Below are positions 27,990 through 64,000 of a stretch of 64,000 nucleotides of DNA, one piece after another; position 1 is the first letter of the stretch; the number at the start of each line of letters is the position of its first letter. The translations under genes and the position numbers were made by a program. The notes beneath the pieces were generated by a model. It ran no database searches. It saw nothing but the letters and a program-made list of their open reading frames with translations, and was not told the origin of the DNA. This DNA comes from a candidate division TA06 bacterium (GTDB lineage: Bacteria; Edwardsbacteria; AC1; EtOH8): the NCBI GenBank assembly GCA_016235665.1, contig JACRJI010000012.1, forward strand, positions 218,543-282,542. The letters are read 5' to 3'.

Positions 27990-28167
27990 ATCCGCAGATT
28001 ACGCAGATTGCCGCAGATAACTCTTATTTAAAAGCGGATGTATCTGTGAAGCTGGGATAGGCCGGAAAACATCGCTAAATAAAACGATCCACGGATTATG
28101 GCAGTGAGTCACGGATGGCAGTTAAATTTGAAAAATAAATCTGTGTTAATCTGTAAAATCTGCGGAT
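27990..28167. repeat. CAGATT decamer-periodic inverted-repeat element
   Basis: ATCCGCAGATTACGCAGATTGCCGCAGAT ... AATCTGTGTTAATCTGTAAAATCTGCGGAT. Confidence 0.8.
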
Positions 28168-29779: not shown

Positions 29780-30003
29780 ATCCGCAGATGACGCAGATCA
29801 TCGCAGATTATACAATTATATTGGCTTACGTGTCATTGCGAGAAGGCCCAGTAGTTGACGAGTGAAGCAATCTAGACTATAATACAAGCCGTAATTTAGA
29901 GAGTTAATCCGCCGAAGCTGCCTAGGCCTATGCGTAGGAGGATAACAATGCGGCGGGAAGGGATTTAACTCCCGTCCCGCCGTTTGTGCTTACTTATGTT
30001 GGC
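29780..30003. repeat. Stack of four different palindromic/repeat motifs
   Basis: CCGCAGAT triplet (29780-29810); GTCATTGCGAG...GAAGCAATCT (29832-29873); ATCCGCCGAAGC...GCGTAGGAGGAT (29907-29943); GGCGGGA/TCCCGCC hairpin ending in GTTGGC (29952-30003). Confidence 0.7.
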
Positions 30004-33457: not shown

Positions 33458-33534
33458 GGGCGATTAGCTCAGTTGGTTAGAGCGTCTGCTTTACACGCAG
33501 AAGGCCGGGGGTTCGAGCCCCTCATTGCCCACCA
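33458..33534 (+). tRNA. tRNA-Val (anticodon TAC), CCA encoded
   Basis: Cloverleaf with acceptor GGGCGAT/ATTGCCC, D-arm GCTC/GAGC, anticodon stem TCTGC/GCAGA around loop TTTACAC, T-loop TTCGAGC and 3' ACCA. Confidence 0.97.
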
Positions 33535-45906: not shown

Positions 45907-47670
45907 TTAACTGAGGCTGGCCAGGGGGATATTGATCCAGAAACGGCTGCCTTTTCCCAAAACGCTTTCGGCTCCGGCACTTCCCCCGTGAAGCTCGGCG
46001 ATGTGTTTGACGATGGCCAGTCCCAGGCCGGTACCGCCCATTTCCCTGGACCGGGCCCGGTCCACCCGGTAGAACCGCTCGAACAGGCGGGGCAGGTTTT
46101 CCCGGCTGATGCCGGGGCCGTCGTCGGATACCGTCAGTATCAGGGCATTTTCCCGGATCTCGGCCGCCAGGTCTATCCGGCTGTTTGGGGGCGAGTACTT
46201 GACGGCATTGTCCAACAGGTTGCCCAGGGCCGAGAACATCTTATCGGGATCTATCTGGACTGGCTGCTGACCGGTCCGGTCATCGGTATGAACCAGATGG
46301 CTCTTTTCGGCGATCCGGGGTTTTAGATTATCAACGGTCCGTTCCAGCAGGGGGCCTACAATAGAGGGGATCTTATTGAGGGTGTAATTACCCGACTCAA
46401 TGGCTGAGAGTTCCAGCAGGTCGTTAACCAATTTGCTCATCCGCAGTGATTGGGTGTGGATCCGGTTAAGAAAATCCTCCAGCTGTTCCCGGTTGTTCAG
46501 GGCGCCGTCCAGCAGGGCTTCGGAAAAACCATTGATGGCCGAAAGCGGGGTCTTGAGCTCATGGGAAACGTTGGCCACGAAATCCTTGCGGATCCGTTCC
46601 AGCATCTTCAGCCGGGTGATGTCAGAAGACACCAACACCCAGCCCCGGGGGCCGTCCTGGTTCCTGATGGCGGCTATCCGGACGATGTAATATCTTTTTT
46701 CCCACTCCAACTCGATCCATTCCCGCTGTTCCTTTATCAGCTGCTCCATGATGGGGCTGCGGATGGCCTCCAAAAGCAAGCGGCCTAAAGCCTGCCGTGG
46801 GTCCAGCCCAAACATTTCGGCGGCGGCATGGTTCACCATCCTGATCACCTGACGCTGGTCCAGGGTTATCACCCCTTCGCTCATTCCCTCCAGCACCGCG
46901 GCCAGGTTGCTTTTTTGCTCGGACAGGTCGTTGACCGTGCCTTCCCAGGACTGGGCTAGCTGGTTAAGGGTCCGGGCTACCAGGGCCGTCTCCCGGCTGC
47001 CTCTGGTCATGGGCGCCCGGGCTTTCAGATCGCCGGATGAAAGCCGGCAGGCGGTCTGTTCAACATCCCTGATGGCCTCGATCTCGGGGTGCCAGGCCAG
47101 GCTGACCAGCAGCCAAAGCAGGGCCGCGCTCAGAACCAGCCCGATGATTACCCCCGCCAGCAGGTGTCTCTGGTAATTTATCAAACCCTCCCAGGGCCAG
47201 GCTATCCGGCAATAACCCCACAGAGTGTTTCCCCGTATGATCGGAACGGCAAAATAGATCATCTCCACTTTAAGGCTCCGGCTGTACCGCACCGTATGGC
47301 CCTGGCCTTTTTGTCTGGCCTGGGCGACCTCCGGCCGCCCCAGATGGTTGTCCATGGCCTTTAGCCCGGCAGCATCCTCATCCGAATCGCCCAGCACCCG
47401 GCCCAGGCTGTCGATGACGGTCACCCGTTTGGCCAGGGCTGCGGCCTGGACCTGGGCCAGGGAATCAATGTTGGCTCCCGGGTCATCCGCCAGCTTTTGG
47501 GAGATCACGGAACTTATCAGCTGGGCCTGTCCCTGCAGCCCGTCCAGGGCCAGGCTCAGCAGGTGCTGCCGGGTGTTGAAATAAAGGTAAAGGGAGAATC
47601 CGCTCAACACCACCAGGACCGAGACCAGTCCGGCCGAGGCCAGTTTTATTTTAAGGCTGGGGTGCTTCAT
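45907..47670 (-). CDS. phoR: PhoR-like sensor histidine kinase (TM-HAMP-PAS-HisKA-HATPase)
   Basis: DNHLGRPEV periplasmic motif, FVANVSHELKTPL, NLLDNAVKYS, FERFYRVDRARSR and GTGLGL motifs. Confidence 0.92.
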   Translation of the reverse strand: MKHPSLKIKLASAGLVSVLVVLSGFSLYLYFNTRQHLLSLALDGLQGQAQLISSVISQKLADDPGANIDSLAQVQAAALAKRVTVIDSLGRVLGDSDEDAAGLKAMDNHLGRPEVAQARQKGQGHTVRYSRSLKVEMIYFAVPIIRGNTLWGYCRIAWPWEGLINYQRHLLAGVIIGLVLSAALLWLLVSLAWHPEIEAIRDVEQTACRLSSGDLKARAPMTRGSRETALVARTLNQLAQSWEGTVNDLSEQKSNLAAVLEGMSEGVITLDQRQVIRMVNHAAAEMFGLDPRQALGRLLLEAIRSPIMEQLIKEQREWIELEWEKRYYIVRIAAIRNQDGPRGWVLVSSDITRLKMLERIRKDFVANVSHELKTPLSAINGFSEALLDGALNNREQLEDFLNRIHTQSLRMSKLVNDLLELSAIESGNYTLNKIPSIVGPLLERTVDNLKPRIAEKSHLVHTDDRTGQQPVQIDPDKMFSALGNLLDNAVKYSPPNSRIDLAAEIRENALILTVSDDGPGISRENLPRLFERFYRVDRARSREMGGTGLGLAIVKHIAELHGGSAGAESVLGKGSRFWINIPLASLS

Positions 47671-48353
47671 TCTTCCTCTTTAAGTTTGTATCCGAAGGAT
47701 TTGACCGTCAGGATGGCCGCGTCCAGCAGGGGGATCTTTTTCCTCAGATGCCGGATATGGACGTCCACCGTCCGGTTGCCGCCGTAGTAGTCCTGGCCCC
47801 AGACGGCATTGAGGATCTGGTCCCGGGAGAGCACCCGGCCGGGGCGCTTTAGCAGGTACTCCAGCAGGCCGAATTCCTTGGCGGTCAGTTCCACTGCCTT
47901 TTTGCTGACGCTGACCAGGTGGCGTTCTCCGTCCAGGATTATCTTTCCGTAATTCAATACTGCCTTGGCTTCCTCCGGGGGCTGGTTGCGGCGGAAGACG
48001 GCCCGGATCCGGGCCATCAGTTCCTTGGGGCTGAAAGGCTTGGTCAGGTAGTCGTCGGCCCCCATCTCCAGGCCCACAATCTTGTCTGTCTCCTCTGCTT
48101 TGGCGGTCAGCATGATGATGGGCAGCCTTTTGGTGGCCGGCTCGGAACGGAGGATCCGGCAAAGTTCCAGGCCGTCCATCCCGGGCAGCATCAGGTCCAG
48201 CACCAGCAGGTCCGGGGGCTGGCGGTGGATGCGCTCCAGGGCCCGTTGGCCGTCGGAAATGGACTCGGACCTGAAGCCGTCCTTTTTCAGATAATGCTCC
48301 ACCAGGTCGGCGATGTCCCGCTCGTCCTCCACTATATAAATAAGCTTGCTCAT
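47667..48353 (-). CDS. phoB: PhoB/PhoP-like OmpR-family response regulator
   Basis: VEDE, LDLMLP, MLTAK, DYLTKPF and RTVDVHIR motifs; overlaps phoR by 4 bp. Confidence 0.92.
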   Translation of the reverse strand: MSKLIYIVEDERDIADLVEHYLKKDGFRSESISDGQRALERIHRQPPDLLVLDLMLPGMDGLELCRILRSEPATKRLPIIMLTAKAEETDKIVGLEMGADDYLTKPFSPKELMARIRAVFRRNQPPEEAKAVLNYGKIILDGERHLVSVSKKAVELTAKEFGLLEYLLKRPGRVLSRDQILNAVWGQDYYGGNRTVDVHIRHLRKKIPLLDAAILTVKSFGYKLKEEE

Positions 48354-50926: not shown

Positions 50927-51754
50927 ATGACCAAAAAAATAATCATAATCGCGATGGTGGCATTGATCGCAGTAATGGGCGGGGTGTCTTTGGCCGGGAA
51001 GGCCATAACCCTGAAGGGATCGGACACCATGCTGCTGCTGGGCCAGCGCTGGGCTGAGATTTACATGGAAAAGCATCCGGGGGTGGTGATCCAGGTCACC
51101 GGCGGCGGGTCGGGGGTGGGCATCGCCGCCCTGATCAACGGCGCCACCAACATCTGCCAGGCCTCCCGCAGCATGAAGGATTCGGAAAAACAGAAACTGC
51201 GGGACCGGTATTTCAGCCTGGGATACGAGATCCCAGTGGCCAAGGACGGGGTGACCCTGTATCTTAACGAAAAAAATCCCATCAACGAGCTGACCCTGGA
51301 CCAGATCAAGGATATCTACACCGGGTACACCACCAACTGGTCGCAGCTGGGAGGGCCGGACGCCAAGATCATCGTCTACGGCCGCGAGAACAGCTCGGGC
51401 ACCTATGTATTCTTTAGGGAAGCGGCCATGAAGAACGCCGATTACACATCCAGCATGCAGTCCCTGCCGGGCACCGCGGCGGTGGTCAATGCCGTGGGTA
51501 AGGATGTCTACGGGATAGGTTACGGCGGAGCCGCCTATGCCAAGGGCGTCAAGGAAGTGGCCATCAAGACCGCCAAGGGCAGCTTTAAGCCCACCACCGA
51601 AACCGTCAAGAGCGGACAGTATCCACTGGCCCGGAACCTTTACTGGTACCTGCAGGGCAAGCCTTCCGGTGAGATGAAAAAAATGGTGGACTGGGTCCTC
51701 TCTCCCGAAGGACAGGAGATAGTGAAAAAAGTCGGGTATTTTACGATAAAATAA
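50927..51754 (+). CDS. pstS: Phosphate ABC transporter substrate-binding protein 1
   Basis: KGSDT, GGGSGVG, ASR, RENSSGT and YPLAR motifs. Confidence 0.95.
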   Translation: MTKKIIIIAMVALIAVMGGVSLAGKAITLKGSDTMLLLGQRWAEIYMEKHPGVVIQVTGGGSGVGIAALINGATNICQASRSMKDSEKQKLRDRYFSLGYEIPVAKDGVTLYLNEKNPINELTLDQIKDIYTGYTTNWSQLGGPDAKIIVYGRENSSGTYVFFREAAMKNADYTSSMQSLPGTAAVVNAVGKDVYGIGYGGAAYAKGVKEVAIKTAKGSFKPTTETVKSGQYPLARNLYWYLQGKPSGEMKKMVDWVLSPEGQEIVKKVGYFTIK

Positions 51755-51841
51755 ACCGGTCAATGTTATGAATAAGCAATCCAGGGGACTTTGGCTATTC
51801 CATTGTTCCCTGGATTTGGGCATTATCAAAGGGAAATATTT

Positions 51842-52768
51842 ATGAGCCTCCAGAAAAAAAGATTCAAATACCTTGGAGAATCGCTGATAGAGGGCAACAT
51901 CAAGTTCACCGCCATACTGGCCATCATAGCGGTGTTCCTGATATTCCTGTTCATCCTGCGGGAGTCATTGCCGATCTTCTTCAGCCGGGAAGTGATGAAG
52001 GAGATAACCTTTGGGAAGTTCTTCAATGGAATTGAATGGCAGCCGGTGTCGGACAACCCCCGGTTCTCGCTGTGGCCGATAATATTGGGCAGTTTAAAAG
52101 TGACCCTGATAGCCCTGGTTTTTGCGGTACCAACCGCTGTCGGAGCGGCACTGTACAGCTCGGAGTTCGCCGGGCGCCGGCTCAAGGAGTTCATCAAACC
52201 GGTGGTGGAACTGCTGGCCGGGATCCCCTCGGTGGTGCTGGGTTTCTTTGCCCTGATAATAATGGCCTCTTTCCTGAAAAACATCTTCGGCTGGACCTAC
52301 CGTCTGAACGCGGTCAATGCCGGCATCGCCCTGGGATTTGCCGTTATCCCGGCCATCTATTCGCTGGCCGAGGATGCCATCAATGCCGTGCCCAGATCTT
52401 TCCGGGAGGCGGCCCTGGGGCTGGGCGCCACCCCCTGGCAGACCGCGGTAAAAGTGGTGCTGCCGGCGGCCCTGCCCGGGGTCTCGGCGGCGGTGCTGTT
52501 CGGCATGGGCCGGGCGGTGGGCGAGACCATGGTGGTGCTGATGGCCGCCGGCAACGCCCCGCTGTTCTCCTTCAACCCGCTGGAATCCACCCGGACCATG
52601 ACAGCCACCATCGCGGCCGAGCTGGGAGAGGTGGTATTCGGAGGCGGCCACTATCATGCCCTGTTCTTTATAGGCCTGACCTTGTTCCTGGTCACGTTTG
52701 TGATCAACACCGCTTCCTGGGTCTTGTTCGACAGTCTGATGAACAAACTGTATGGAGCAAAGAAATAG
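51842..52768 (+). CDS. pstC: Phosphate ABC permease PstC 1
   Basis: ELLAGIPSVV and RAVGETM motifs; start at ATG 51842. Confidence 0.95.
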   Translation: MSLQKKRFKYLGESLIEGNIKFTAILAIIAVFLIFLFILRESLPIFFSREVMKEITFGKFFNGIEWQPVSDNPRFSLWPIILGSLKVTLIALVFAVPTAVGAALYSSEFAGRRLKEFIKPVVELLAGIPSVVLGFFALIIMASFLKNIFGWTYRLNAVNAGIALGFAVIPAIYSLAEDAINAVPRSFREAALGLGATPWQTAVKVVLPAALPGVSAAVLFGMGRAVGETMVVLMAAGNAPLFSFNPLESTRTMTATIAAELGEVVFGGGHYHALFFIGLTLFLVTFVINTASWVLFDSLMNKLYGAKK

Positions 52769-52775
52769 GCGGCAT

Positions 52776-53690
52776 ATGAATTATCAGACAAAATTAAGAA
52801 AAATCGGCGACAAGGTAAAGATCGGCCTGACCGGAACGGCGGTCCTGTTGATATTGGCCATCCTGGCAATCATCCTTGCGGCTGTGATAGCCGGCGGTTA
52901 TAAAAGCCTGAGCTGGGAGTTCCTGAGCCAGCCGCCCCGCGACGGCATGACCAAGGGCGGGATCTTCCCGGCCATATTCGGGATGGTGTTCTCATTGATC
53001 CTGATGCTGATCGCGGTGGTGCCGGTGGGCGTGGCCACGGCCGTTTACCTGCACGAGTACGCCCGGCCAGATTTTATATTGACCAGGTTGATCCGGGGGG
53101 CGGTCAACAACCTGGCCGGGGTTCCTTCCATCGTTTTCGGCCTGTTCGGGCTGGGTTTCTTCATCCAGTTCATCGGCAACGGGATCGACCGGTCTTTGGG
53201 ACAGAGCGGACTGTTCGGCCAGCCCTGCATCCTTTGGGCCTCGCTGACCCTGGCCCTGATGAACCTTCCGATCATCATCGTGGCCACCGAGGAGGCCCTG
53301 AGAGCCATTCCCCAGGCGGAGCGGGCCGGGGCCCTGGCCCTGGGGGCCACAAAATGGCAGACCATCCGGCATGTGGTGCTGCCCCAGGCCATTCCCGGCA
53401 TACTGACCGGCGTGGTGCTGACCATCAGCCGGGGAGCCGGCGAGGTGGCGCCCATCATGTTCACCGGGGCGGCCTATTACCTGCCTTACCTGCCCAAACT
53501 GCCCACCGACCAGTTCATGACCCTGGGCTATCACATCTTTGTGATGACCACCCAGTCACCGGACATAGACGCCACCGTGCCCATAGCCATGGGCGCCACC
53601 CTGGTCCTGCTGGCATTGACCTTTTCACTGAACATCATCGCCATCATCATCAGATCCCGCACCAGAAGACAGCTTAGCAAAGGAAGATAG
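52776..53690 (+). CDS. pstA: Phosphate ABC permease PstA 1
   Basis: [23 protein letters not shown] and RGAGEVAP motifs; start at ATG 52776. Confidence 0.95.
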
Positions 53691-53691
53691 A

Positions 53692-54459
53692 ATGGAAACA
53701 AGGGAAAACCGCTTGGAAATAATTGATTTCAGCCTCTTCTACCACCGCACCAAGGCCCTGGAGGAGATCTCCATGGACATTCCCGAAAAAAAGGTGACCG
53801 CCATCATCGGGCCGTCGGGCTGCGGAAAATCCACCCTGCTGCGGTCCATCAACCGGATGAACGAGCTGATAGAGGGAGTGACCACCGAGGGGGAGATATT
53901 GCTGGACGGGGAGGACATCTATCACAAAAACATAGATGTGGTGGAACTGCGGCGCAAGGTGGGGATGGTCTTTCAGAGGCCCAATCCTTTTCCCAAGTCC
54001 ATTTACGAAAACGTGGCCTTTGGGCTGAGGATGGGCGAGAAAGCATATTCCAAGGGCAGACTGGAGGAAGTGGTGGAGCAATCGCTTAAGGAGGCGGCCA
54101 TCTGGGACGAAGTCAAGGACCGGCTGCAGCGCTCGGCCATGGAGCTTTCGGGCGGGCAGCAGCAGAGGGTCTGCATCGCCCGGGCCCTGGCGGTGGAGCC
54201 GGAAGTCATCCTGATGGACGAACCGGCCTCGGCCCTGGATCCTATAGCCACCGCCAAGATCGAGGAACTGATCTTCAAACTGAAGGAAAAATACACCATC
54301 GTCATCGTGACCCACAACATGCAGCAGGCGGCCCGGGTCTCGGACCAGACGGCATTTTTGATGCTGGGCAAGCTGATAGAATACGGGGATACTTCGACCA
54401 TATTCACCAAGCCTCGGAACAAGACCACCGAGGAATATATAACTGGAAGATTTGGTTAA
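53692..54459 (+). CDS. pstB: Phosphate ABC ATPase PstB 1, all motifs canonical
   Basis: [36 protein letters not shown] and ITGRFG motifs. Confidence 0.97.
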
Positions 54460-54481
54460 TATATAGAAAGGAGAACGGAAA

Positions 54482-54958
54482 ATGAATATTCTTATAATAC
54501 ACTATGGTCTGGACCAAAAACAACTTATCATAGTGGATGAAATAAGAAAAGACCTGGATTGCCAGGTGGAGGAACTTAAGGCTGGGAAAAGCTTTGCTTT
54601 ATGGAGGATAATCAAGTATTTTCTAAAACTTCCGTCCAAAGCCGATACTTTGAAAAATGAAACTTTGTGGTATGAATCCATAATCCTATGTTTTACTACT
54701 GGAGGCATAGAACTGCCACCAGAGATAAGGGCTTTATTAAAGGAATACCGTTACAGCCTACGGAACTTGGCTTGTCTAATTTTCACCTCAAGATCCCAAG
54801 GGGTCAAGGACACTTTATTGGAATCAGTGATACAGCTGGCTGGTGGCAGGCCGTTGGCTTGGTGCGAAGTCATCGGGGATAGTTCTGCAAACACCCAGGA
54901 AATTAGAGCCTTTGTTCGAAAAATTCAAAATCTCGGGCATTACAACCAGAAAAGATAG
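54482..54958 (+). CDS. AT-rich flavodoxin-fold-like hypothetical protein
   Basis: beta-alpha pattern (NILIIHYG, YESIILCF, LACLIFTS) resembling short flavodoxins but without the phosphate-binding loop; SD AAGGAG. Confidence 0.55.
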   Translation: MNILIIHYGLDQKQLIIVDEIRKDLDCQVEELKAGKSFALWRIIKYFLKLPSKADTLKNETLWYESIILCFTTGGIELPPEIRALLKEYRYSLRNLACLIFTSRSQGVKDTLLESVIQLAGGRPLAWCEVIGDSSANTQEIRAFVRKIQNLGHYNQKR

Positions 54959-54987
54959 CTTCAACTATCCTGCGAGGAAAAAGATTA

Positions 54988-55023
54988 CAAGGACGGCAAC
55001 CAAAACCGTCCTTGATTTTTTTT
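54988..55023 (+). terminator. Terminator of pst operon 1
   Basis: CAAGGACGG/CCGTCCTTG stem followed by a T-tract. Confidence 0.85.
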
Positions 55024-55156
55024 GATATTCAATCGAACAAAATATCGTCTCATGTATTTCATTGATAAATTCGTTAATAGTATAGAAATTAAACCGGAAA
55101 TATGATACAATGATCTTAACGAATCAATCAGCTATCAAACAATTCTGGAGGCAAAC

Positions 55157-55783
55157 ATGGGTTTCTCCCTGATCCCCAAGGAAGTGCAGTTTTTCGATCT
55201 TTTTGACAAACAAGCCGCTGTGATCAACATCGCCGCCAAAAGTTTCAAGGAGCTGGCTGTCAGTGGGACCTTCGATGATGCCGGCATCGAGCGGATGAAG
55301 GACATCGAGCACCAGTGCGACGAGATCACCCACGACATCATCGACAAGCTCAACCGCTGTTTCATCACTCCCTTTGACCGTGAGGATATCTACAAACTGG
55401 CCCTCGAACTTGACGACTTGGTGGACATGCTGTACAGCGTGGCCAAGAGGATGCGGCTATACAAGATAAACGGGGTCCACCCGGACATGATCAAGTTTTC
55501 CGAGCTGATAGAACAGGCGGTCGGCTGTCTGGGCAAGGCCCTGAATAGTCTTCGCAACAGCAAGCACCACAAACCCATTTTAGTCTGCTGTATCGAGATC
55601 AACCGGCTGGAGAACGAGGGCGACCACCTGCGGGATCATGTGATAGGCGATCTTTTCGAGAATGAAAGTGATGCCATGGCGGTCATGAAATGGAAAGAGA
55701 TCTTTGAAGGTGTGGAAACCTGCCTGGACATAAGCGAGGATATCAGTAACATCATAGAATCCATACTGGTGAAGAACGCCTGA
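55157..55783 (+). CDS. DUF47 (PhoU-like Pit accessory) protein
   Basis: EHQCDEITH, FITPFDREDI, LENEGD and WKEI motifs; stop overlaps the pit start. Confidence 0.92.
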   Translation: MGFSLIPKEVQFFDLFDKQAAVINIAAKSFKELAVSGTFDDAGIERMKDIEHQCDEITHDIIDKLNRCFITPFDREDIYKLALELDDLVDMLYSVAKRMRLYKINGVHPDMIKFSELIEQAVGCLGKALNSLRNSKHHKPILVCCIEINRLENEGDHLRDHVIGDLFENESDAMAVMKWKEIFEGVETCLDISEDISNIIESILVKNA

Positions 55784-56778
55784 TGCTGCCGCTTATAATA
55801 TTTTTGATATTGTTGGCCTTGTTCTTTGATTTTTTGAACGGTTTCCACGACTCGGCCAACTCGATCGCCACCATTGTTTCCACCAGAGTGCTTTCGCCGC
55901 GCCATGCGGTGCTCTGGGCAGCTTTTTTCAATTTTGTCGCTTTCCTGATATTCAAGACCCATGTAGCCAGCACCATCAGCAAGGGGATCGTGAGCCTGGG
56001 GACCATAGATTCCGCAGTGATCTTTGCCACTTTGGTGGGGGCCTGCCTGTGGGACCTGATTACCTGGTATTTTGGCCTGCCCACCAGTTCCTCCCACGCT
56101 TTGATGGGCGGCCTGATAGGAGCTGCCCTCCTTAAGACCGGCGCGGAGTCGCTGATTTGGTCTGGCATATTAAAAACAGTGGCTTTCATCTTTATTTCGC
56201 CATTATTGGGTATGGCCCTGGGGCTATTGAACGGAGTGGCTGTACACTGGTTATTCCGCCGGGCGGTGCCCAGCAAGGTGGACCAATTTTTCCGAAAAGG
56301 GCAGCTGGTTTCAGCCGCATTCTATAGCCTGGGCCACGGCGGCAACGATGCCCAGAAAACCATGGGCATCATTGCCGGGTTAATGGTCAGCGCAGGCTAC
56401 ATGGCGAAGGATTTTAATGAAATACCGCTTTGGATAGTGCTGGCCTGTCATTCGGCCATCGCCATAGGCACCATGTTCGGCGGCTGGCGGATAGTGAAGA
56501 CCATGGGGCAGAAGGTGGCCAAGTTGCGCCCGGTGGACGGTTTCTGCGCCGAGTTTGGCGCCGCCACATCGTTGTTCATCTCCTCGGCCCTGGGCGTTCC
56601 GGTCAGCACCACCCACACCATCACCGGAGCCATAATGGGAGTGGGCTCGCTTAAACGTATGTCGGCGGTACGTTGGGGAGTAGCCGGCCAAATAGTATGG
56701 GCTTGGGTTCTGACCATTCCCTGTTCGGCCCTGATCTCTGGGGTGGTATACTTCATAATCAAAAAGGCGGGAATCTAA
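55783..56778 (+). CDS. pit: PiT family inorganic phosphate transporter
   Basis: GFHDSANSIAT, PTSSSHA, HGGNDAQK and PVSTTH motifs. Confidence 0.95.
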   Translation: MLPLIIFLILLALFFDFLNGFHDSANSIATIVSTRVLSPRHAVLWAAFFNFVAFLIFKTHVASTISKGIVSLGTIDSAVIFATLVGACLWDLITWYFGLPTSSSHALMGGLIGAALLKTGAESLIWSGILKTVAFIFISPLLGMALGLLNGVAVHWLFRRAVPSKVDQFFRKGQLVSAAFYSLGHGGNDAQKTMGIIAGLMVSAGYMAKDFNEIPLWIVLACHSAIAIGTMFGGWRIVKTMGQKVAKLRPVDGFCAEFGAATSLFISSALGVPVSTTHTITGAIMGVGSLKRMSAVRWGVAGQIVWAWVLTIPCSALISGVVYFIIKKAGI

Positions 56779-56803
56779 AAAGATCGTCATTTTTGCCTTA
56801 ATC

Positions 56804-56833
56804 AAAAGAGGGTGCAGGTGCCCCTCTTTTTTT
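56804..56833 (+). terminator. Terminator after pit
   Basis: AAAAGAGGG...CCCTCTTTTTTT. Confidence 0.75.
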
Positions 56834-56835
56834 GT

Positions 56836-56852
56836 TTAACACGGATTTAACA
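56836..56852 (+). promoter_or_regulatory. Pho box upstream of pst operon 2
   Basis: Two perfect TTAACA at 56836 and 56847 (11-bp spacing). Confidence 0.7.
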
Positions 56853-56933
56853 TTGTGCTAATGCCCTTAAAATATTGGAGTAATATACTCATCATGCAAA
56901 GGATCAACCAATTCCAAACCAAGAGGAGGCAAG

Positions 56934-57728
56934 ATGATTAAACTGCTTAGGTCACCATTGATGGTGCTGGTAACTGCAGTCCTGATATTAGGCTGCGGCA
57001 AGAATAAACAATCCATCACCCTGGCCGGCTCCACCGCTTTCCAGCCCTTCGCCGAGAAACTGGCCGAGCAGTACATGGCGGCCAATCCCGGGGCTTCGAT
57101 CACGGTCCAGGGCGGCGGCTCGGCAGTTGGCATCCAGTCGGCCCTTTCCGGGGCGGCCCAGATAGGGATGGCCGACCTGGTGAACCTGCCCCCGGAAGCC
57201 AGGGAACTCAACGCCACCATAGTGGCCAGGGACGGCATAGCGGTGGTGATAAACCCGGCCAATAAAGTGAAAGATCTTACCCTCGACCAGCTTCGGGACA
57301 TCTTCAACGGAAAGATCAAGAACTGGAAGGCAGTCGGAGGGGCGGACAAGGACATCACCGTGGTCTCGCGCGAGGCCGGCTCCGGCACCAGGACATCGTT
57401 TGAAGAGATAGTGACCGGGATAGACCTAAGCGGGAACGCCCTGATCCAGGACTCCAACGGGACCATCCGGGAAACAGTGGCCAACGACGCCGGAGCCATA
57501 GGCTACCTTTCCCACGGGCTGTTGAACGAGAAGATCAAAGCAGTTCTTTTGGATGGACAGGAATGCACAACAGAAAAGATCATGGCTCAGAAATATAAGC
57601 TGGTGCGGCCGATATTCCTCTTGACCAAGGCTCAGCCCGGAGCCGAGGTTCAAAGCGTGATAGATTACATCCTTTCTGCCGAGGGACAGCAGACCATCCA
57701 GCAGAACGGACTGATCCCGGCCAAGTGA
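56934..57728 (+). CDS. pstS: Phosphate ABC substrate-binding lipoprotein 2
   Basis: Lipobox ILGC; AGSTA, GGGSAVG, DGIAV, REAGSGTR motifs. Confidence 0.93.
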   Translation: MIKLLRSPLMVLVTAVLILGCGKNKQSITLAGSTAFQPFAEKLAEQYMAANPGASITVQGGGSAVGIQSALSGAAQIGMADLVNLPPEARELNATIVARDGIAVVINPANKVKDLTLDQLRDIFNGKIKNWKAVGGADKDITVVSREAGSGTRTSFEEIVTGIDLSGNALIQDSNGTIRETVANDAGAIGYLSHGLLNEKIKAVLLDGQECTTEKIMAQKYKLVRPIFLLTKAQPGAEVQSVIDYILSAEGQQTIQQNGLIPAK

Positions 57729-57733
57729 AACTA

Positions 57734-57768
57734 ATTCCTGAATACGGAATACTGAATTTTGAATACTG
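57734..57768. repeat. Heptamer tandem repeat
   Basis: ATTCCTG AATACGG AATACTG AATTTTG AATACTG. Confidence 0.65.
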
Positions 57769-57811
57769 TAGTTAGTAACATTGTTGACAGTACTGAAACG
57801 CAAAATAAAAA

Positions 57812-58669
57812 ATGCCGGTTAACAGCGAAAAAATAATGCAGCAACTGCTGCTGGCCGTGGCCTTCTCGGCCCTTTCGGCCCTGCTGCTGATCGCCGTTTT
57901 TATCATCAGCCAGGGGCTTCCCTTCATTTTCAGGTACGGGTTAGGGGAATTCCTGTTCTCTTCCCAGTGGAATCCCCAGGCCGGAAAATTTGGCATCTTT
58001 CCCATGGTGGTTTCCACCCTGTGGGTCACTTTGGGGGCCATGGCCATTGGGGCGCCGCTGGGGGTGGCCGGGGCGGTGTTCCTGACCGAGTTCGTGCCCC
58101 GGACGGTGATGCGGATAATAAAGCCGGCCATAGAACTGCTGGCCGGGATACCATCGGTGGTCTACGGCTTCATCGGGGTGATGGTGCTGGCCCCGCTGAT
58201 CCGGGACCATCTGGGCGGCCCGGGCCTTTCGCTTTTGGCTGGCTCCATCATCCTGGGAATAATGATCCTGCCCACCATCATCAGCATCTCCATCGATTCC
58301 ATCATGGCGGTGCCCAAAAGCTACCGGGAAGGGTCCCTGGCCCTGGGGGCTACGGTCTGGCAGACGGTGCGGATGGTGACCCTGCCGGCCGCCCGGTCCG
58401 GCATCGCGGCCAGCATCATCCTGGCCATGGGGCGGGCCATCGGCGAGACCATGGCGGTGATCATGGTCACCGGCAACTCCGTCAAGATCCCGGGCTCGGC
58501 CCTGGAGCCGGTGCGGACCCTGACCGCCAACATCGCCCTGGAGATGGGCTATGCCACCGGAATGCACCGCCAGGCCCTGTTCGCCACCGGGGTGGTGCTG
58601 TTTGTGGTGATCATGATCCTCAATTTCAGCGCCAGTTATGTGATGAGGCAGAGAAAGGCCCGCCGATGA
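57812..58669 (+). CDS. pstC: Phosphate ABC permease PstC 2
   Basis: ELLAGIPSVVYG and RAIGETMAV motifs. Confidence 0.94.
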   Translation: MPVNSEKIMQQLLLAVAFSALSALLLIAVFIISQGLPFIFRYGLGEFLFSSQWNPQAGKFGIFPMVVSTLWVTLGAMAIGAPLGVAGAVFLTEFVPRTVMRIIKPAIELLAGIPSVVYGFIGVMVLAPLIRDHLGGPGLSLLAGSIILGIMILPTIISISIDSIMAVPKSYREGSLALGATVWQTVRMVTLPAARSGIAASIILAMGRAIGETMAVIMVTGNSVKIPGSALEPVRTLTANIALEMGYATGMHRQALFATGVVLFVVIMILNFSASYVMRQRKARR

Positions 58670-59502
58670 AACTTGATCCCAAACATACCCAGAAGGCGGC
58701 GGTGGCGGTGCTGGGATCGGCCACCTTGCTGACCCTGACCGCCCTGGTCTTCATCATCGTCTTCGTGCTTCAGAAAGGCCTGCCGGTGCTGAGCTGGGCC
58801 TTTCTGACCGGTTCGCCCCAGGACATGGGCCGGGCCGGTGGGATCTTCCCGGCCATAGTGGGCTCGGTATCCCTGACCGTGCTGGCGGTGCTGCTGGCCG
58901 CGCCCCTGGGGGTGGGTACGGCGGTCTACCTGACCGAATACACCCGGGAATCACGCCTGACCGTCCTGATCCGGTTCGGGGCCGACTGCCTGGCCGGAAT
59001 ACCGTCCATCATCTTCGGCCTGTTCGGCTTCATACTGTTCGTGACCATCATGAAGATGGGCTGGTCGCTTCTGGCCGGCTCGCTGACCCTGGCCCTGATG
59101 ATCCTGCCCACTATCATCCGGACCACCGAGGAGGCCATCAAGGCGGTGCCGCTTTCCTACCGCGAGGTCAGCTATTCGCTGGGGGCCACCCGCTGGCAGA
59201 CTGTGCACAAGGTGATCCTGCCCAATGCCCTGCCCGGGATCCTGACCGGCGTGATGCTGGGTGTGGGCAGGGCTTTGGGTGAGACGGCGGCCGTCATCTT
59301 CACCGCCGGGTCATCTCTCAGGATGCCGGCCTCTGTCTTCGATTCGGTTCGGACCATGGCGGTGCACTTCTACCTGCTGGCCCGGGAGGGCATCTCGCCC
59401 GAGAATGCCTACGGGACGGCGGCGGCCCTGATCATCGCAGTACTCTCGGTGAACCTGCTGGCCTATTGGATGATGAACCGGATGGTAGCCAAAAGAGCAT
59501 AA
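58666..59502 (+). CDS. pstA: Phosphate ABC permease PstA 2
   Basis: ATGA overlap with the pstC stop at 58666; GGIFPAIVG, LAGIPSIIFGLFG and RALGETA motifs. Confidence 0.93.
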   Translation: MKLDPKHTQKAAVAVLGSATLLTLTALVFIIVFVLQKGLPVLSWAFLTGSPQDMGRAGGIFPAIVGSVSLTVLAVLLAAPLGVGTAVYLTEYTRESRLTVLIRFGADCLAGIPSIIFGLFGFILFVTIMKMGWSLLAGSLTLALMILPTIIRTTEEAIKAVPLSYREVSYSLGATRWQTVHKVILPNALPGILTGVMLGVGRALGETAAVIFTAGSSLRMPASVFDSVRTMAVHFYLLAREGISPENAYGTAAALIIAVLSVNLLAYWMMNRMVAKRA

Positions 59503-59512
59503 AGATGAACAA

Positions 59513-60268
59513 ATGCCAGTCAAAATAGCACTGAATAAATTTTCGGTCCATTACGGTCCGGACCCGCTTCTCCAGGAGATCGACCTGGTGATCCAGAGCA
59601 ATCAGATACTGGGCGTAATCGGGCCGTCCGGCTCCGGCAAGACCACCTTTCTCCGGGCCCTGAACCGGATGAACGAACTGCAGCCCGGCTTTACCACCGA
59701 GGGCCAGGTCCTACTGGACGGGGAGGACATCTACGGCCGGGATTATGACGCGGTCAGCCTGCGCAAAAAAGTGGGAATGGTGTTTGCCATGCCGGTGCCC
59801 CTGCCCATGAGCATCCACGAGAACATAATCTACGGCCCCAAACTTTCGGCCGGCCGGGGATGGAAGCATGACGAGGCAGTGGTGGAGAGCTCCTTAAAGG
59901 CGGCTTTCTTATGGGACGAGGTTAAGGACCGTTTGAAGACTTCGGCCCTAAGGCTTTCCGGCGGCCAGCAGCAGCGGCTGTGCCTGGCCCGGATCCTGGC
60001 CCTGAAGCCGGAGGTGATCCTGCTGGACGAGCCCTGCTCCGGGCTGGACCCGGTCTCCACCGCCAAGATCGAGGAGGCCTTGACCATCTTAAAGGAAAGA
60101 TATACCGTGATCCTGGTCACCAACAACACCAAGCAGGCGGCCCGGGTGGCCGACCGCACGGCCTTCTTCCTGATGGGGAAACTGGTGGAGGAGGGAGCCA
60201 CCCAGCAGATGTTCACCGCTCCGAAGGACAAGCGGACCAGCGACTACATCACCGGAAGGTTCGGCTGA
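59513..60268 (+). CDS. pstB: Phosphate ABC ATPase PstB 2 (Q-loop and H-loop degenerate)
   Basis: GPSGSGKT, VFAMP (Q to A), [17 protein letters not shown] (H to N). Confidence 0.93.
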   Translation: MPVKIALNKFSVHYGPDPLLQEIDLVIQSNQILGVIGPSGSGKTTFLRALNRMNELQPGFTTEGQVLLDGEDIYGRDYDAVSLRKKVGMVFAMPVPLPMSIHENIIYGPKLSAGRGWKHDEAVVESSLKAAFLWDEVKDRLKTSALRLSGGQQQRLCLARILALKPEVILLDEPCSGLDPVSTAKIEEALTILKERYTVILVTNNTKQAARVADRTAFFLMGKLVEEGATQQMFTAPKDKRTSDYITGRFG

Positions 60269-60285
60269 TACCGGGAAACCTTCTT

Positions 60286-60382
60286 ATCCGCAGATTAACG
60301 CAGATTATGACCACTCTTTTTTTTATATAAAACGATTTAAAGTCGAATAGATAATCTGTGTAAATCTGATAAATCTGCGGAT
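60286..60382. repeat. CAGATT decamer-periodic inverted-repeat element
   Basis: ATCCGCAGATTAACGCAGATT ... AATCTGTGTAAATCTGATAAATCTGCGGAT; same family as 27990-28167. Confidence 0.8.
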
Positions 60383-60442
60383 GAAAAAAGTGGTAAGTTT
60401 GGAGTTGGTTTTGTAAACAAAGGTCATAATATAGCATTTGCA

Positions 60443-61198
60443 ATGGATCTAAAAATTGAAATAAAGGACCTGGACCTTTTCTACGGCAGTTTCCAGGCGC
60501 TGAAGGCAGTTTCCATGCCGGTCTATGACCGGCAGATCACCGCTTTGATCGGCCCTTCCGGCTGCGGGAAGTCCACCCTGCTCCGTTCCCTGAACCGGAT
60601 GAACGACCTGATCTCCGAGGTCAGGATCAAGGGCCTGGCCCTGCTGGACGGGGTCAACATCTATGACCGGAACACCGATGTGGAACTTCTCCGGAAGAGG
60701 GTGGGAATGGTCTTTCAGCGGCCCAACCCCTTCCCGCTGTCGATCTACGAGAACGTGGTCTACGGCTTAAAGGTGGCCGGAACGAACGATAAAAGTACCC
60801 TGGACCAGACGGCGGAAAAAAGCCTGAAGGCCGCCTGGCTTTGGGACCAGCTCAAGGACAAACTACATCAGCCGGCGATCTCCCTTCCCCTGGACCAGCA
60901 GCAGCGGCTGTGCCTGGCCCGGTTGCTGGCGGTGGAGCCGGAGGTGATCCTGATGGACGAGCCCTGCTCCTCCCTGGACCCAATCGCCACCGCCAAGGTG
61001 GAGGAGCTGATGCTGGAACTGAAAAAGGATTACACCATCGTCATTGTCACCCATAACATGCAGCAGGCGGCCCGGGTCTCGGATTTCTCGGGATACATGC
61101 TGCTGGGGCAGATGATTGAGTTCGGGGAGACCAAGACGCTGTTCACCAATCCAGCGCAGAAGCTGACAGAGGATTACATCACCGGAAGGTTCGGATAA
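60443..61198 (+). CDS. pstB: Phosphate ABC ATPase PstB 3 (signature motif degenerate)
   Basis: [13 protein letters not shown], signature LPLDQQQR in place of LSGGQ, LMDEP, VTHN. Confidence 0.93.
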
Positions 61199-61211
61199 CG
61201 AAGCAATCAGG

Positions 61212-61282
61212 TATCCTCTATCCAGTATCCTGTATTCAGTAAAACAACATAGTGAATAACGGCTACTGGCCACTGACCACTA
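61212..61282. repeat. Two short heptamer runs
   Basis: TATCCTC TATCCAG TATCCTG TATTCAG; GCTACTG GCCACTG ACCACTA. Confidence 0.55.
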
Positions 61283-61317
61283 AATTATAAACAGCAAACT
61301 TACGCTGAGGTAGAAAG

Positions 61318-61986
61318 ATGGAACAAAGACATTTTGACCGGGAGCTTTTGGAGCTTAAGGAAAAGCTGTTGTTGATGGCGGCCAAGGTGGAGCAGCTGAT
61401 CAAGCAGTCCATAGAGTCCCTGATGAAGAAGGATGCGGTGCTGGCCCAGTCGCTTTTTGACCTGGACAAGGAAGTGGACAGGCTGGAGATCGAGATAGAA
61501 GAGGACGCCATCGCACTTATCGCCCGGCACCAGCCGGCGGCCGGGGACCTTCGCTTTTTGATCGGGGCCATCAAGATCAACAACGACCTGGAGCGGATCA
61601 GCGACCACGGGGTGAACATCGCCCAGAGCGCCATCCGGCTGGCGGCCCAGCCGGAGTTGAAGCCCCTGATCGACATCCCGCGGATGGCCGAGCTTTCCAT
61701 CGGCATGCTCAAGGACAGCCTGGACAGCTTCGTCAACAACGACCCGGACAAGGCCCGGGCGGTCTGCAAAAGCGACGACCAGGTGGACGACCTGAAGGAC
61801 CAGATATTCAGGGAACTGCTGACATATATGATGGAGAAGCAGGACTCCATCGGCCGGGCCATGGACCTGATCCTGGTCAGCCGGAACCTGGAACGGGTGG
61901 CCGATCTTTCCACCAACATCAGCGAGGAGGAGATCTACATCTCCGAGGCCAAGATCGTAAAGCATAATGTTCAGAAGGGGAAATGA
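61318..61986 (+). CDS. phoU: Phosphate signalling protein PhoU
   Basis: HQPAAGDLR, DLERISDH, DDQVD and LERVAD..TNI.E motifs. Confidence 0.96.
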   Translation: MEQRHFDRELLELKEKLLLMAAKVEQLIKQSIESLMKKDAVLAQSLFDLDKEVDRLEIEIEEDAIALIARHQPAAGDLRFLIGAIKINNDLERISDHGVNIAQSAIRLAAQPELKPLIDIPRMAELSIGMLKDSLDSFVNNDPDKARAVCKSDDQVDDLKDQIFRELLTYMMEKQDSIGRAMDLILVSRNLERVADLSTNISEEEIYISEAKIVKHNVQKGK

Positions 61987-62065: not shown

Positions 62066-62175
62066 ATTATAATACCGAAGTCCGGAACTATTTATGTAAC
62101 CAATGAATCCATGAACAAGGGAAATATTCCTGAATTCATGGTTTCCTTATAAATAAATCTATCTCGAAAGAAAAC

Positions 62176-64000
62176 ATGCTTAGCGAACTTCAAATAACCC
62201 AGGTCATCACCAAGGAATTGGGCCTGCAGCCTTTCCAGGTCAGCAACACTCTGGAACTTTTCGGGGAAGGGGCCACCATCCCCTTCATCGCCCGGTACCG
62301 CAAGGAGAAGACCGGCCTGCTGGACGAGGTCCAGATCCGGGATATCCGCGACCGGTTCGATTACATCAAGGAACTGGACGAGCGCAAGGCAGCCATCCTG
62401 AAAAGCATAGAGGAGCAGGGCAAACTGACCGACGAACTGAAGGCCAAGATAGAGGCCTGCCTGGTGAAGCAGGAGCTGGAGGACCTTTACCTGCCCTACA
62501 AACAGAAGCGGAAGACCAAGGGCATGGTGGCCAAGGAAAAAGGTTTGGAGCCTCTGGCCCTGTCGCTGTGGCTGCAGGAGGGAAGTTTTGACCCGCAGGC
62601 TGAGGCCGAAAGATACCTCAACCCGGAACTGGGGATCAACAGCGCCAAGGATGCCCTGGACGGGGCCCGGTACATCATAGCCGAGCTGATCTCCGACGAC
62701 GCCGAGGTCCGCAAATATCTGCGGGAGACCACTATGGCCAAGGGGATCCTGGTCTCCCAGGTCAGGGACGAGTTCAAGGAACAGAAGACCAAGTTCAACC
62801 AGTACTACGAATTCAAGGAGCCGCTTAAGCTGATCCCCTCCCACCGCTATCTGGCCATCATGCGGGGGGAGAACGAGGAAGTGCTGACCGCCAAGGTGGA
62901 TCCCCCGGTGGAAGAGATCAACCAGTATCTGCTCAACAAATTCATCAAGGACAGATCCTTTGCCCAGTACCAGTATTTGAGCGAGGTGATAGGCTTTGCC
63001 TACCGGGTTTACCTGAACACCTCCATCGAGGTGGAACTGCGGTCGGAGATCAAGGAAAAGTCCGACGCCGAGGCCATCCGGGTGTTCGCCGAGAATCTCA
63101 GGAACCTGCTGCTGGCCCCGCCGGCCGGCTCCAAGGCCATCATGGGGATAGACCCCGGACTGCGCACCGGCTGCAAGGTCGCAGTGGTGGACGAGACCGG
63201 AAAATTCATGGAATACGCCACCATCTTCCCCCACAGTTCGGCCTCCCAAAAACAGGAAGCGGCCAAGACCCTGGCGGCCCTGGCCAAGAAATACAAGCTG
63301 GAGCTGGCTTCCATCGGCAACGGCACCGCCTCCCGGGAGACCGACCAGTTCGTACGGGAGGTGATCGCGGAGCACAAGGGGATCAAGCTGCAGCCGGTGG
63401 TGGTCAGCGAATCCGGGGCCTCGGTCTACTCGGCCTCGGACCTGGCCCGGGAGGAGTTCCCGGACCTGGATGTCTCGGTCCGCGGCGCCATCTCCATCGC
63501 CCGGAGGCTGCAAGACCCGCTGGCCGAGCTTGTGAAGATAGACCCAAAATCCATCGGAGTGGGCCAGTACCAGCACGACGTCAACCAGCCCAAGCTCCGG
63601 CAGGCTCTGCACGAGACGGTGGAATCCTGCGTCAACTTCGTTGGCGTAGACCTGAACACAGCCTCCTATTCGCTGCTGTCCTACGTTTCCGGCCTAAGCG
63701 AGGCCATGGCCAAGAACATCGTCAAATACCGGGACGAGCAGGGCGCCTTCAAGAACCGGAAGGAACTTCTCAGAGTGACTAGGCTGGGGCCAAAAGCCTT
63801 TGAGCAGGCGGCGGGATTTTTAAGGATCCGGGACGGGGCCGACCCGCTGGACAATTCGGCCGTCCATCCCGAAAGCTATCCCATCGTCAAGCAGATGGCC
63901 AAGGATCTTAAAACCAAGACCGGACTGCTGGTGGGCGATCCCCTGCTGGCCGGGCAGATCGACCTGAAAAAATACGTCACTCCGGAGGTCGGACTGCCCA
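62176..64000 (+). CDS. tex: Tex family (S1/YqgF-domain) transcription accessory protein, 3' end outside window
   Basis: My translation from ATG 62176 gives GATIPFIARYRKEKTG, DLYLPYK, GIDPGLRTGCK, ESGASVYSAS, RRLQDPLAEL and IGVGQYQHDV. Missing from the track because it has no stop in the window. Confidence 0.95.
   Translation, partial: MLSELQITQVITKELGLQPFQVSNTLELFGEGATIPFIARYRKEKTGLLDEVQIRDIRDRFDYIKELDERKAAILKSIEEQGKLTDELKAKIEACLVKQELEDLYLPYKQKRKTKGMVAKEKGLEPLALSLWLQEGSFDPQAEAERYLNPELGINSAKDALDGARYIIAELISDDAEVRKYLRETTMAKGILVSQVRDEFKEQKTKFNQYYEFKEPLKLIPSHRYLAIMRGENEEVLTAKVDPPVEEINQYLLNKFIKDRSFAQYQYLSEVIGFAYRVYLNTSIEVELRSEIKEKSDAEAIRVFAENLRNLLLAPPAGSKAIMGIDPGLRTGCKVAVVDETGKFMEYATIFPHSSASQKQEAAKTLAALAKKYKLELASIGNGTASRETDQFVREVIAEHKGIKLQPVVVSESGASVYSASDLAREEFPDLDVSVRGAISIARRLQDPLAELVKIDPKSIGVGQYQHDVNQPKLRQALHETVESCVNFVGVDLNTASYSLLSYVSGLSEAMAKNIVKYRDEQGAFKNRKELLRVTRLGPKAFEQAAGFLRIRDGADPLDNSAVHPESYPIVKQMAKDLKTKTGLLVGDPLLAGQIDLKKYVTPEVGLP

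Follow-up and report, generated by a model that had tools for sequence, protein, structure and literature searches.

The 64,000-nucleotide stretch analysed here (the window), from a contig of a candidate division TA06 bacterium, carries two adjacent genes, pstB2 and pstB3, for ATPase subunits of a phosphate importer. The Q-loop Gln and the H-loop His are missing from PstB2, and the LSGGQ signature is missing from PstB3. All these defects would fall in one of the two ATP sites of a PstB2/PstB3 dimer. We consider it likely, from the sequence evidence, that the two form an obligate heterodimer with a single catalytic site, which would drive a type I importer of the ATP-binding cassette (ABC) class.

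The motifs were read from the translations of the open reading frames (ORFs), and they agree to the residue with what an earlier note on this DNA had stated for its three PstB proteins. PstB1, encoded in another operon of the window, is canonical throughout with Walker A GPSGCGKST, Q-loop VFQRP, signature LSGGQ, Walker B ILMDEP, D-loop SALD and H-loop VTHN. PstB2 has Walker A GPSGSGKTT (residues 37-45), the canonical signature, Walker B ILLDEP (residues 169-174) with Glu173 retained and D-loop SGLD, but its Q-loop is VFAMP and its H-loop is VTNN. The catalytic half of PstB3 is canonical with Walker A GPSGCGKST, Q-loop VFQRP, Walker B ILMDEP, D-loop SSLD, H-loop VTHN and an A-loop Tyr, but its signature is LPLDQ. 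The Asp151 of this signature is at the position of CFTR Gly551, the second signature Gly. Thus, only PstB1 has the full canonical set.

All three proteins match the PstB family TIGR00972 of NCBIfam with E = 1e-101 to 1e-123, far above other ABC families, and are mutually 50-60% identical. PstB1 (411 bits) and PstB3 (376.7 bits) exceed the curated cut-off of 343.2 bits, and PstB2 (339.3 bits, E = 1e-101) is just below it. Residues were mapped by gapless alignment to E. coli PstB (PDB 9k3x) with an offset of +6, which is validated by the match of Glu173 to E179, the position changed to Gln in the published E179Q structure (PMC12976172). The E. coli equivalents of PstB2 Ala92, PstB2 Asn204 and PstB3 Asp151 are Gln98, His210 and Gly157, respectively. 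The AlphaFold2 model of PstB2 has a predicted local distance difference test score of 88.4, and its best Foldseek match is E. coli PstB (9k3x_C) with a TM-score (template modelling score) of 0.95 and a root-mean-square deviation of 1.3 A. By this model, the PstB2 fold is intact.

In an ABC dimer, one subunit contributes the Walker A/B, Q-loop and H-loop to each ATP site, and its partner contributes the signature (PMC7756269). PstA and PstC of E. coli PstSCAB each have one PstB beneath them, and the PstB dimer is glued by two ATPs (PMC12976172). PstB2 and PstB3 would likewise be the two different nucleotide-binding domains (NBDs) of one PstS2-PstC2-PstA2 phosphate importer, one under each membrane subunit, which would make one copy of each per complex. 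The consensus site would be made of the PstB3 catalytic half and the PstB2 LSGGQ. The other site, called site 2 below, would place the PstB2 Walker A/B with Ala92 and Asn204 against the PstB3 LPLDQ and would be a conserved non-catalytic site.

Two copies of PstB3 would put LPLDQ into both sites, and two copies of PstB2 would leave both sites without the Gln and His. Since each ATP site draws on both subunits, only the heterodimer would complete one catalytic site. For the HisP importer, a single intact site is enough (Nikaido and Ames 1999, as cited in PMC3971661). The earlier note had predicted complementary defects that all fall in one composite site and leave one consensus site, and motif mapping over 87 pairs bears this out.

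In a single genome, the chance that three such changes share one composite site is about 1 in 4. The weight of the pattern comes from its conservation in 240 closest homologs and 98 testable loci rather than from this one genome. All 120 closest PstB2 homologs (67-95% identical) have VFA[LM]P or LFALP in the Q-loop, VTNN in the H-loop and the LSGGQ signature. Equally, all 120 closest PstB3 homologs have LP[LM][DE]Q together with VFQRP and VTHN.

One genome per GTDB species was scanned with a DNA pattern encoding LP(L/M/I/F)(D/E)QQQRLC, for which one or two chance matches in the GTDB representatives are estimated from its information content. At least 120 species-representative loci match this PstB3-type signature, and this number is a lower bound on the family size. 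Record titles among the matches listed name Verrucomicrobiota (including Akkermansia-labelled metagenome-assembled genomes, MAGs), Lentisphaerota/Victivallales, Kiritimatiellota, Ignavibacteriota (Ignavibacteria/Melioribacter), Bacteroidota, Spirochaetota (Treponemataceae, Leptospirales), Omnitrophota, Acidobacteriota, Gemmatimonadota, Campylobacterota, Hydrogenedentota, Bacillota (Syntrophomonadaceae), Elusimicrobiota (Endomicrobiales) and several candidate phyla. One locus titled Akkermansia muciniphila (L115, CAMBQV010000009.1) is matched only by freshwater metatranscriptome contigs, at up to 8% of words. Its species label is probably wrong, as the MAG comes from a lake.

Among the same matches listed, all 98 testable loci have a PstB2-type (N1) gene directly upstream of the PstB3-type (N2) gene and in the same orientation. 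A locus was testable with at least 900 nt upstream, and 21 loci end too near the N2 gene. The pairs were found automatically in 95 loci, and three apparent exceptions (L117, L101 and L092) were resolved by inspection. The N1 signature of L117 is ISGGQ. The N1 reading frame is intact in 97 of the 98 loci, L092 being the sole exception.

Two of the inspected loci are unusual in themselves. L101 (592-2102, Acidobacteriota MAG JANODS010001059.1) has a much diverged pair that still obeys the rule, with GPAQSGKSS, VAPLP, Walker B LDEF and H-loop VTNL in N1 and with LPLEQ and VTHS in N2. It may be a deeper or faster-evolving branch of the family. In L092 (about 1342-1889, Ignavibacteriaceae MAG DAISZW010000043.1), about 100 amino acids of N1 (residues about 75-178) are missing and the downstream N2 is intact. 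This deletion is either an assembly error or a genuine loss.

The gene context of the pair is also kept. A PstA homolog is immediately upstream in 81 of the 82 loci testable for it, and phoU is downstream on the same strand in 70 of the 98, again among the matches listed. The operon order pstS-pstC-pstA-N1-N2(-phoU) recurs in distant lineages. Separate look-ups found the same operon and motifs in a 958-kb ENA contig, a Syntrophomonadaceae contig and a Kiritimatiellia contig.

Residue statistics were taken from 87 complete N1/N2 pairs. N1 has the Q-loop Ala in 86, the H-loop Asn in 87, the SGGQ signature in 87 and the D-loop SGLD in 86. The N2 signature has Pro in 87, then Leu in 79 or Met in 8, and then Asp in 83 or Glu in 4, so its fourth position is acidic in every pair. 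The rest of N2 is canonical, with the Q-loop Gln in 87, the H-loop His in 84, the A-loop Tyr in 86 and Walker A GPSGCGKS in 87. Hence, the replacement residues are conserved as strongly as the canonical ones whose place they take. The earlier note had named lack of conservation in orthologs as one of two things that would refute its reading, and these counts show the opposite.

N1 also keeps the Walker A Lys (87/87), the Walker B Asp (87/87) and mostly the Walker B Glu (84/87, Asp in 3). Two other positions of N1 are relaxed. Its second Walker A Gly varies (G 69, S 14, N 2, R 1, Q 1), and so does its A-loop residue (F 40, H 16, Y 14, Q 7), which is aromatic or His in 70 of 87. The same positions are invariant or nearly so in N2, and this hints at weaker selection on nucleotide binding at the degenerate site.

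The two types are equally constrained, with mean pairwise identities of 0.68 for N1 and 0.69 for N2 and 43 columns without variation in each type. Compared with L001 (GCA_002412795.1), the closest relative, the ratio of nonsynonymous to synonymous substitution rates (dN/dS) is 0.12 for pstB2 and 0.10 for pstB3, and it is 0.095 for pstB1 and 0.12 for phoU. Both genes are under purifying selection.

The replacement pattern extends beyond the LPLDQ type. Representative search clusters at 50% identity merge PstB2-type, PstB3-type and canonical PstB and served as a diverse tree set. They also yield PstB with LSAEQ, LTEEQ and LSLGQ signatures and N1-like proteins with FSVP, FATP or FAVP together with VTNN. 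An LSAEQ-seeded homolog search gave a second subgroup with 43 LSPEQ, 36 LSAEQ and a few LSSEQ, LTPEQ, LAAEQ and other signatures, in which the Q-loop and H-loop are canonical throughout. Its labels are Planctomycetes, Phycisphaerae, Brocadiia, Elusimicrobia, Acidobacteriota and Bacillota.

In three contexts of this subgroup, an N1-type gene with the Q-loop Ala and VTNN is upstream within pstS-pstC-pstA-N1-N2-phoU. The second subgroup thus suggests a general rule that subunit 1 is without the Q-loop Gln and the H-loop His, while subunit 2 has its second signature Gly changed to Asp or Glu. In neighbour-joining trees with 87 canonical PstB, N1 forms one clade (bootstrap 87/100) and N2 another (80/100). 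A single old origin for each type is likely from these trees, though not firm. The closest canonical relatives of N2 among those checked are single-copy pstB genes (L130 and L131). We also looked for natural PstB-PstB fusions, but the long matches (430-570 amino acids) carry only one NBD each.

The complementarity, the co-occurrence in fixed order and the equal constraint together make the obligate heterodimer the best explanation. The earlier note had inferred the same pairing, with which the conservation, the ordered tandem in all testable loci and the dN/dS values agree as well. Several points weigh against it. PstB2 retains the Walker A Lys, the Walker B Asp and Glu and a mostly aromatic or His A-loop at the frequencies given above, so site 2 may still bind nucleotide and hydrolyse it slowly. 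MRP1 still transports when the H-loop His of its active site is replaced by Asn or Gln (PMC7756269).

Tandem PstB are not always obligate partners, since an excess of PstB2 can by itself stand in for PstB1 in Enterococcus faecalis (PMC12096839), although both copies there are canonical. The genome studied here also encodes the canonical PstB1, and mixed dimers are conceivable. Lastly, masking the motif columns lowers the bootstrap values of the trees to 34 for N1 and 67 for N2.

Within the heterodimer, site 2 may serve in different ways. It could be an ATP-holding glue or allosteric site like the degenerate site of TM287/288, TAP or MRP1 or site 1 of CFTR, which is a possible reading but to us a doubtful one. 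Such a site would bind ATP tightly with hardly any hydrolysis and would hold the NBDs together during the cycles of the consensus site, as the analogy of the earlier note implies if taken literally. Such holding is the best-documented role of a degenerate site (PMC7756269, PMC3971661). PstB2 conserves the Walker A Lys, the Walker B Asp-Glu and the pocket parts independent of LSGGQ, and most N1 A-loops have an aromatic residue or His. Moreover, the Pdr5 signature LNVEQ resembles LPLDQ, and Pdr5 still binds ATP at its degenerate site (PMC7756269; bioRxiv 10.1101/2021.02.09.430491).

Against an ATP-holding site stands the acidic residue at signature position 4, present in all 87 pairs and in the LSPEQ/LSAEQ subgroup, as such a residue blocks ATP closure in CFTR (PMC4178940, PMC2151620). 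By electrophysiology, CFTR G551D and G551E, but not G551S and G551K, block the ATP-driven NBD dimerisation via repulsion of the gamma-phosphate (PMC4178940). With G1349D at the degenerate site, ATP binding there turns inhibitory (PMC4178940, PMC2151620). The relaxed Walker A Gly and A-loop of N1, compared with the A-loop Tyr of N2, also suggest a weaker constraint on nucleotide binding.

The degenerate sites of TM287/288, TAP, MRP1 and CFTR have usually lost the Walker B Glu, and they keep ATP bound for long as a glue (PMC7544095, PMC7756269). Because the Walker B Glu is retained and an invariant acidic residue occupies the CFTR G551 position, site 2 is probably not a classical ATP-clamping glue site. 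The earlier note had likened the pair to TAP, CFTR and TM287/288. The topology of that layout stands, but the lesion type does not, as PstB2 retains the Walker B Glu but not the Q-loop Gln, and its partner has an acidic signature residue.

The obligate heterodimer would then work as follows. The invariant Asp or Glu would stand where the backbone of the second signature Gly normally contacts the ATP gamma-phosphate. Site 2 would stay open, or be ADP-bound or empty, and protein contacts would hold that side of the dimer together. A stronger version, which we offer only tentatively, is that the acidic signature residue together with Ala92 and Asn204 makes site 2 one that is built never to sandwich ATP and that the importer completes its alternating-access cycle on a single ATP sandwich, as a natural 'half-price' type I importer found across phyla. 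In it the carboxylate would occupy or repel the gamma-phosphate position, and the interface would close with ADP or no nucleotide.

E. coli PstCAB has a robust basal ATPase that is independent of PstS (PMC12976172), and many carriers of the pair are anaerobes from sediments and groundwater. Given such high uncoupled basal Pst ATPase, the half-price state was possibly selected in energy-limited anaerobes, which is speculative.

A different role for PstB2, compatible with the heterodimer, is mainly signalling, either in docking PhoU or PhoR or as an adenylate or phosphate sensor for the Pho regulon. In E. coli, PhoU and PstB interact, and the Pho signal is proposed to lie in alternate conformations of PstSCAB, according to works cited in PMC12976172. 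Both in the window and in many relatives, the phoU gene comes after the pair, and the invariant replacement residues suggest a positive function rather than mere loss. However, the phoU adjacency is unspecific, because phoU also follows the canonical single pstB (L130, L131), and 28 of the 98 loci have no phoU downstream on the strand of the pair. No PhoU feature co-varying with the pair was found, and none was searched for. We judge the signalling role unlikely, and the idea of the earlier note that the dead site senses nucleotide with the adjacent PhoU gains no specific support.

Mixed complexes are conceivable in this genome, with PstB2, PstB3 or both partnering the canonical PstB1, whose gene is 5 kb upstream. 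All three are 50-60% identical and are encoded within one Pho island. Operon 1 and the operon of the pair, however, are each complete, and a canonical pstB is within the same 8 kb in only 4 of 119 loci of other species among the matches listed. Mixed complexes are therefore improbable in our view.

Still less credible is that each protein works as a separate homodimer, for example with PstB3 driving transport and PstB2 serving as a regulatory or alternative ATPase. The tandem paralogs of E. faecalis differ in their roles and can partly replace each other, and a pstB1 mutant regains uptake when PstB2 alone is overexpressed (PMC12096839), but both E. faecalis copies have canonical motifs, and either homodimer here would be defective in both sites. 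The strict complementarity, the fixed-order co-occurrence and the equal constraint would also be unexpected. Neutral decay of redundant paralogs toward pseudogenes, which the internal deletion in L092 might suggest, is practically negligible and is refuted by the conservation data, namely the invariant substitutions across phyla, dN/dS near 0.1, the nearly always intact frames, the equal constraint and the confident fold.

The nearest known system is E. coli PstSCAB (PDB 9k3x, 9k3s; PMC12976172), which shares the TIGR00972 family, the operon logic and the fold with 50% identity. It has two identical PstB and two canonical sites, whereas PstB2 and PstB3 are different subunits with one consensus site. 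The tandem pstB1/pstB2 of E. faecalis and other Firmicutes (PMC12096839) and PstBA/PstBB of B. subtilis (PMC11466899) are also adjacent paralogs in a pst-phoU operon, about 50-60% identical. By the published description, both E. faecalis copies are canonical (PMC12096839), unlike the complementary-degenerate PstB2 and PstB3.

TM287/288, TAP1/2, MRP1 and CFTR resemble the pair in having non-identical NBDs, an H-loop change in one and a degenerate signature in the other, with every deviation in the same composite site and one consensus site left (PMC7756269, PMC3971661). They are type IV exporters or channels with the Walker B Glu loss as a hallmark (PMC7544095), whereas PstB2/PstB3 appears to be a type I importer with the Glu kept, the Q-loop Gln lost and the signature acidic. 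Pdr5/Cdr1 (LNVEQ; PMC7756269) also has Glu at signature position 4 and an altered H-loop in the other NBD. However, the Walker A Lys and the Walker B Glu of Pdr5 are changed too, and it is a full-length eukaryotic exporter.

CFTR G551D, G551E and G1349D (PMC4178940, PMC2151620) place an acidic residue at the second LSGGQ Gly as in PstB3. In CFTR these are disease mutations with loss of function, whereas in the PstB3 clade the acidic residue is the invariant wild-type state, in a site that would already be non-catalytic. RbsA and NupO (PMC11466899) are bacterial importers with one degenerate ATP site, but with fused NBDs, in another importer class outside the Pst family and with the Walker A Lys lost. 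HisP2MQJ with one mutated site, as far as PMC3971661 relates it, is a type I importer working on a single intact site, but its heterodimer was engineered from an NBD that is homodimeric in nature and is not a natural fixed state.

The pair belongs to a Pho island at 45.9-62 kb of the window with two pst operons (Table 1). The pstS position of operon 2 is kept in loci L001-L006 and L127-L129. The pstB2 and pstB3 genes share one reading frame.

Table 1. Features of the Pho island and motif positions in PstB2 and PstB3 (window coordinates)
Feature	Position	Strand	Remarks
phoR/phoB	45907-48353	minus	
PHP-domain gene, then phosphate-selective porin		plus	between phoR/phoB and operon 1
Operon 1, pstS1-pstC1-pstA1-pstB1	50927-54459	plus	complete
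pstB1	53692-54459	plus	operon 1; 255 aa; canonical comparison copy
Inter-operon insert	54482-56778		158-aa ORF (54482-54958), DUF47/TIGR00153 protein, PiT/PHO4 transporter
Operon 2, pstS2-pstC2-pstA2-pstB2-pstB3-phoU	56934-61986	plus	
pstS2	56934-57728	plus	phosphate-binding protein of operon 2; TIGR02136 PstS family, E = 4e-63
pstC2	57812-58669	plus	membrane subunit; Pfam BPD_transp_1; dN/dS vs L001 0.056
pstA2	58666-59502	plus	membrane subunit; Pfam BPD_transp_1; ends 10 nt before pstB2
pstB2	59513-60268	plus	N1-type NBD; 251 aa
PstB2 A-loop position	59552-59554		residue 14; relaxed in N1
PstB2 second Walker A Gly	59630-59632		residue 40; relaxed in N1
PstB2 Q-loop VFAMP	59780-59794	plus	residues 90-94; Ala92 replaces catalytic/sensor Gln
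PstB2 signature LSGGQ	59954-59968	plus	residues 148-152; canonical
PstB2 H-loop VTNN	60116-60127	plus	residues 202-205; Asn204 replaces switch His
pstB2-pstB3 spacer	60269-60442		174 nt; AT-rich; with small palindromic dispersed repeat
pstB3	60443-61198	plus	N2-type NBD; 251 aa; dN/dS 0.098
PstB3 signature LPLDQ	60884-60898	plus	residues 148-152; Ser->Pro, Gly->Leu, Gly->Asp
phoU	61318-61986	plus	TIGR02135, E = 2e-62

The spacer between pstB2 and pstB3 is not kept in the close relatives L001 and L003, and the corresponding genes abut or overlap in other lineages. No terminator-like site was found in it. It holds a nested palindromic element with two copies of CGCAGATTA, two copies of TAAATCTG and 18-nt inverted arms at 60291-60308 and 60351-60368. 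Its head motif ATCCGCAGAT-ACGCAGAT also occurs at 28002-28020 and 29792-29810, which makes 3 matches in the window against 0.02 expected. The element looks like a small dispersed repeat of the repetitive extragenic palindromic (REP) or miniature inverted-repeat transposable element (MITE) kind, judged by these copies.

The surroundings of operon 2 vary. The segment between the operons (54460-56930) differs among near-identical relatives, being empty in L001 (7298-7422) and holding a 154-aa ORF, a PhoU fragment and a low-molecular-weight phosphatase/ArsC-like gene in L002 (6060-7425). In L001-L003, an AbiEi/AbiEii toxin-antitoxin/abortive-infection pair lies between phoU and a tex-like gene (L001 12714-14239). 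In the window, the tex-like ORF is directly 3' of phoU (from about 62134, running off the window end) with no Abi pair between. A minus-strand 506-aa ORF at 62092-63612 is probably an antisense artefact.

The sole Rfam match in the 64-kb window is one tRNA gene (33458-33531). DNA metagenomes match the window sequence, a groundwater run best, and a run-level sequence search found no RNA runs holding it.

In the literature we searched, with most subscription journals outside it, no description of PstB pairs with complementary degenerate motifs was found. A 2025 paper on E. faecalis notes no earlier study of tandem pstB paralogs (PMC12096839). One-consensus-site NBD dimers are already known, and so are fused-NBD importers with one degenerate site (RbsA, NupO; PMC11466899). 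What appears new here, by sequence comparison, is the asymmetric one-consensus-site NBD dimer in a type I importer, its distinct degeneration pattern and its wide taxonomic spread.

Reviews treat degenerate sites as an exporter feature (PMC3971661, PMC7756269). The earlier note had called the pair unusual for an importer, which agrees with them, yet the fused-NBD importers are known. One dead site is tolerated by HisP and not by MalK (PMC3971661). For annotation, both genes currently carry the plain label 'phosphate ABC transporter ATP-binding protein', and PstB2 falls below the NCBIfam equivalog cut-off.

How many ATPs an ABC importer uses per cycle and whether it needs both sites are long-standing questions, and natural asymmetry has been studied almost only in exporters. 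The PstB2/PstB3 pair appears to be an evolutionarily fixed single-consensus-site version of a type I importer in at least 120 species of more than a dozen phyla. Its symmetric E. coli counterpart has structures (PMC12976172), so two homologous systems are directly comparable. If the half-price reading is true, the pair would directly answer whether type I importers mechanistically need two ATP sites and would parallel the CFTR G551D state as a natural and benign case.

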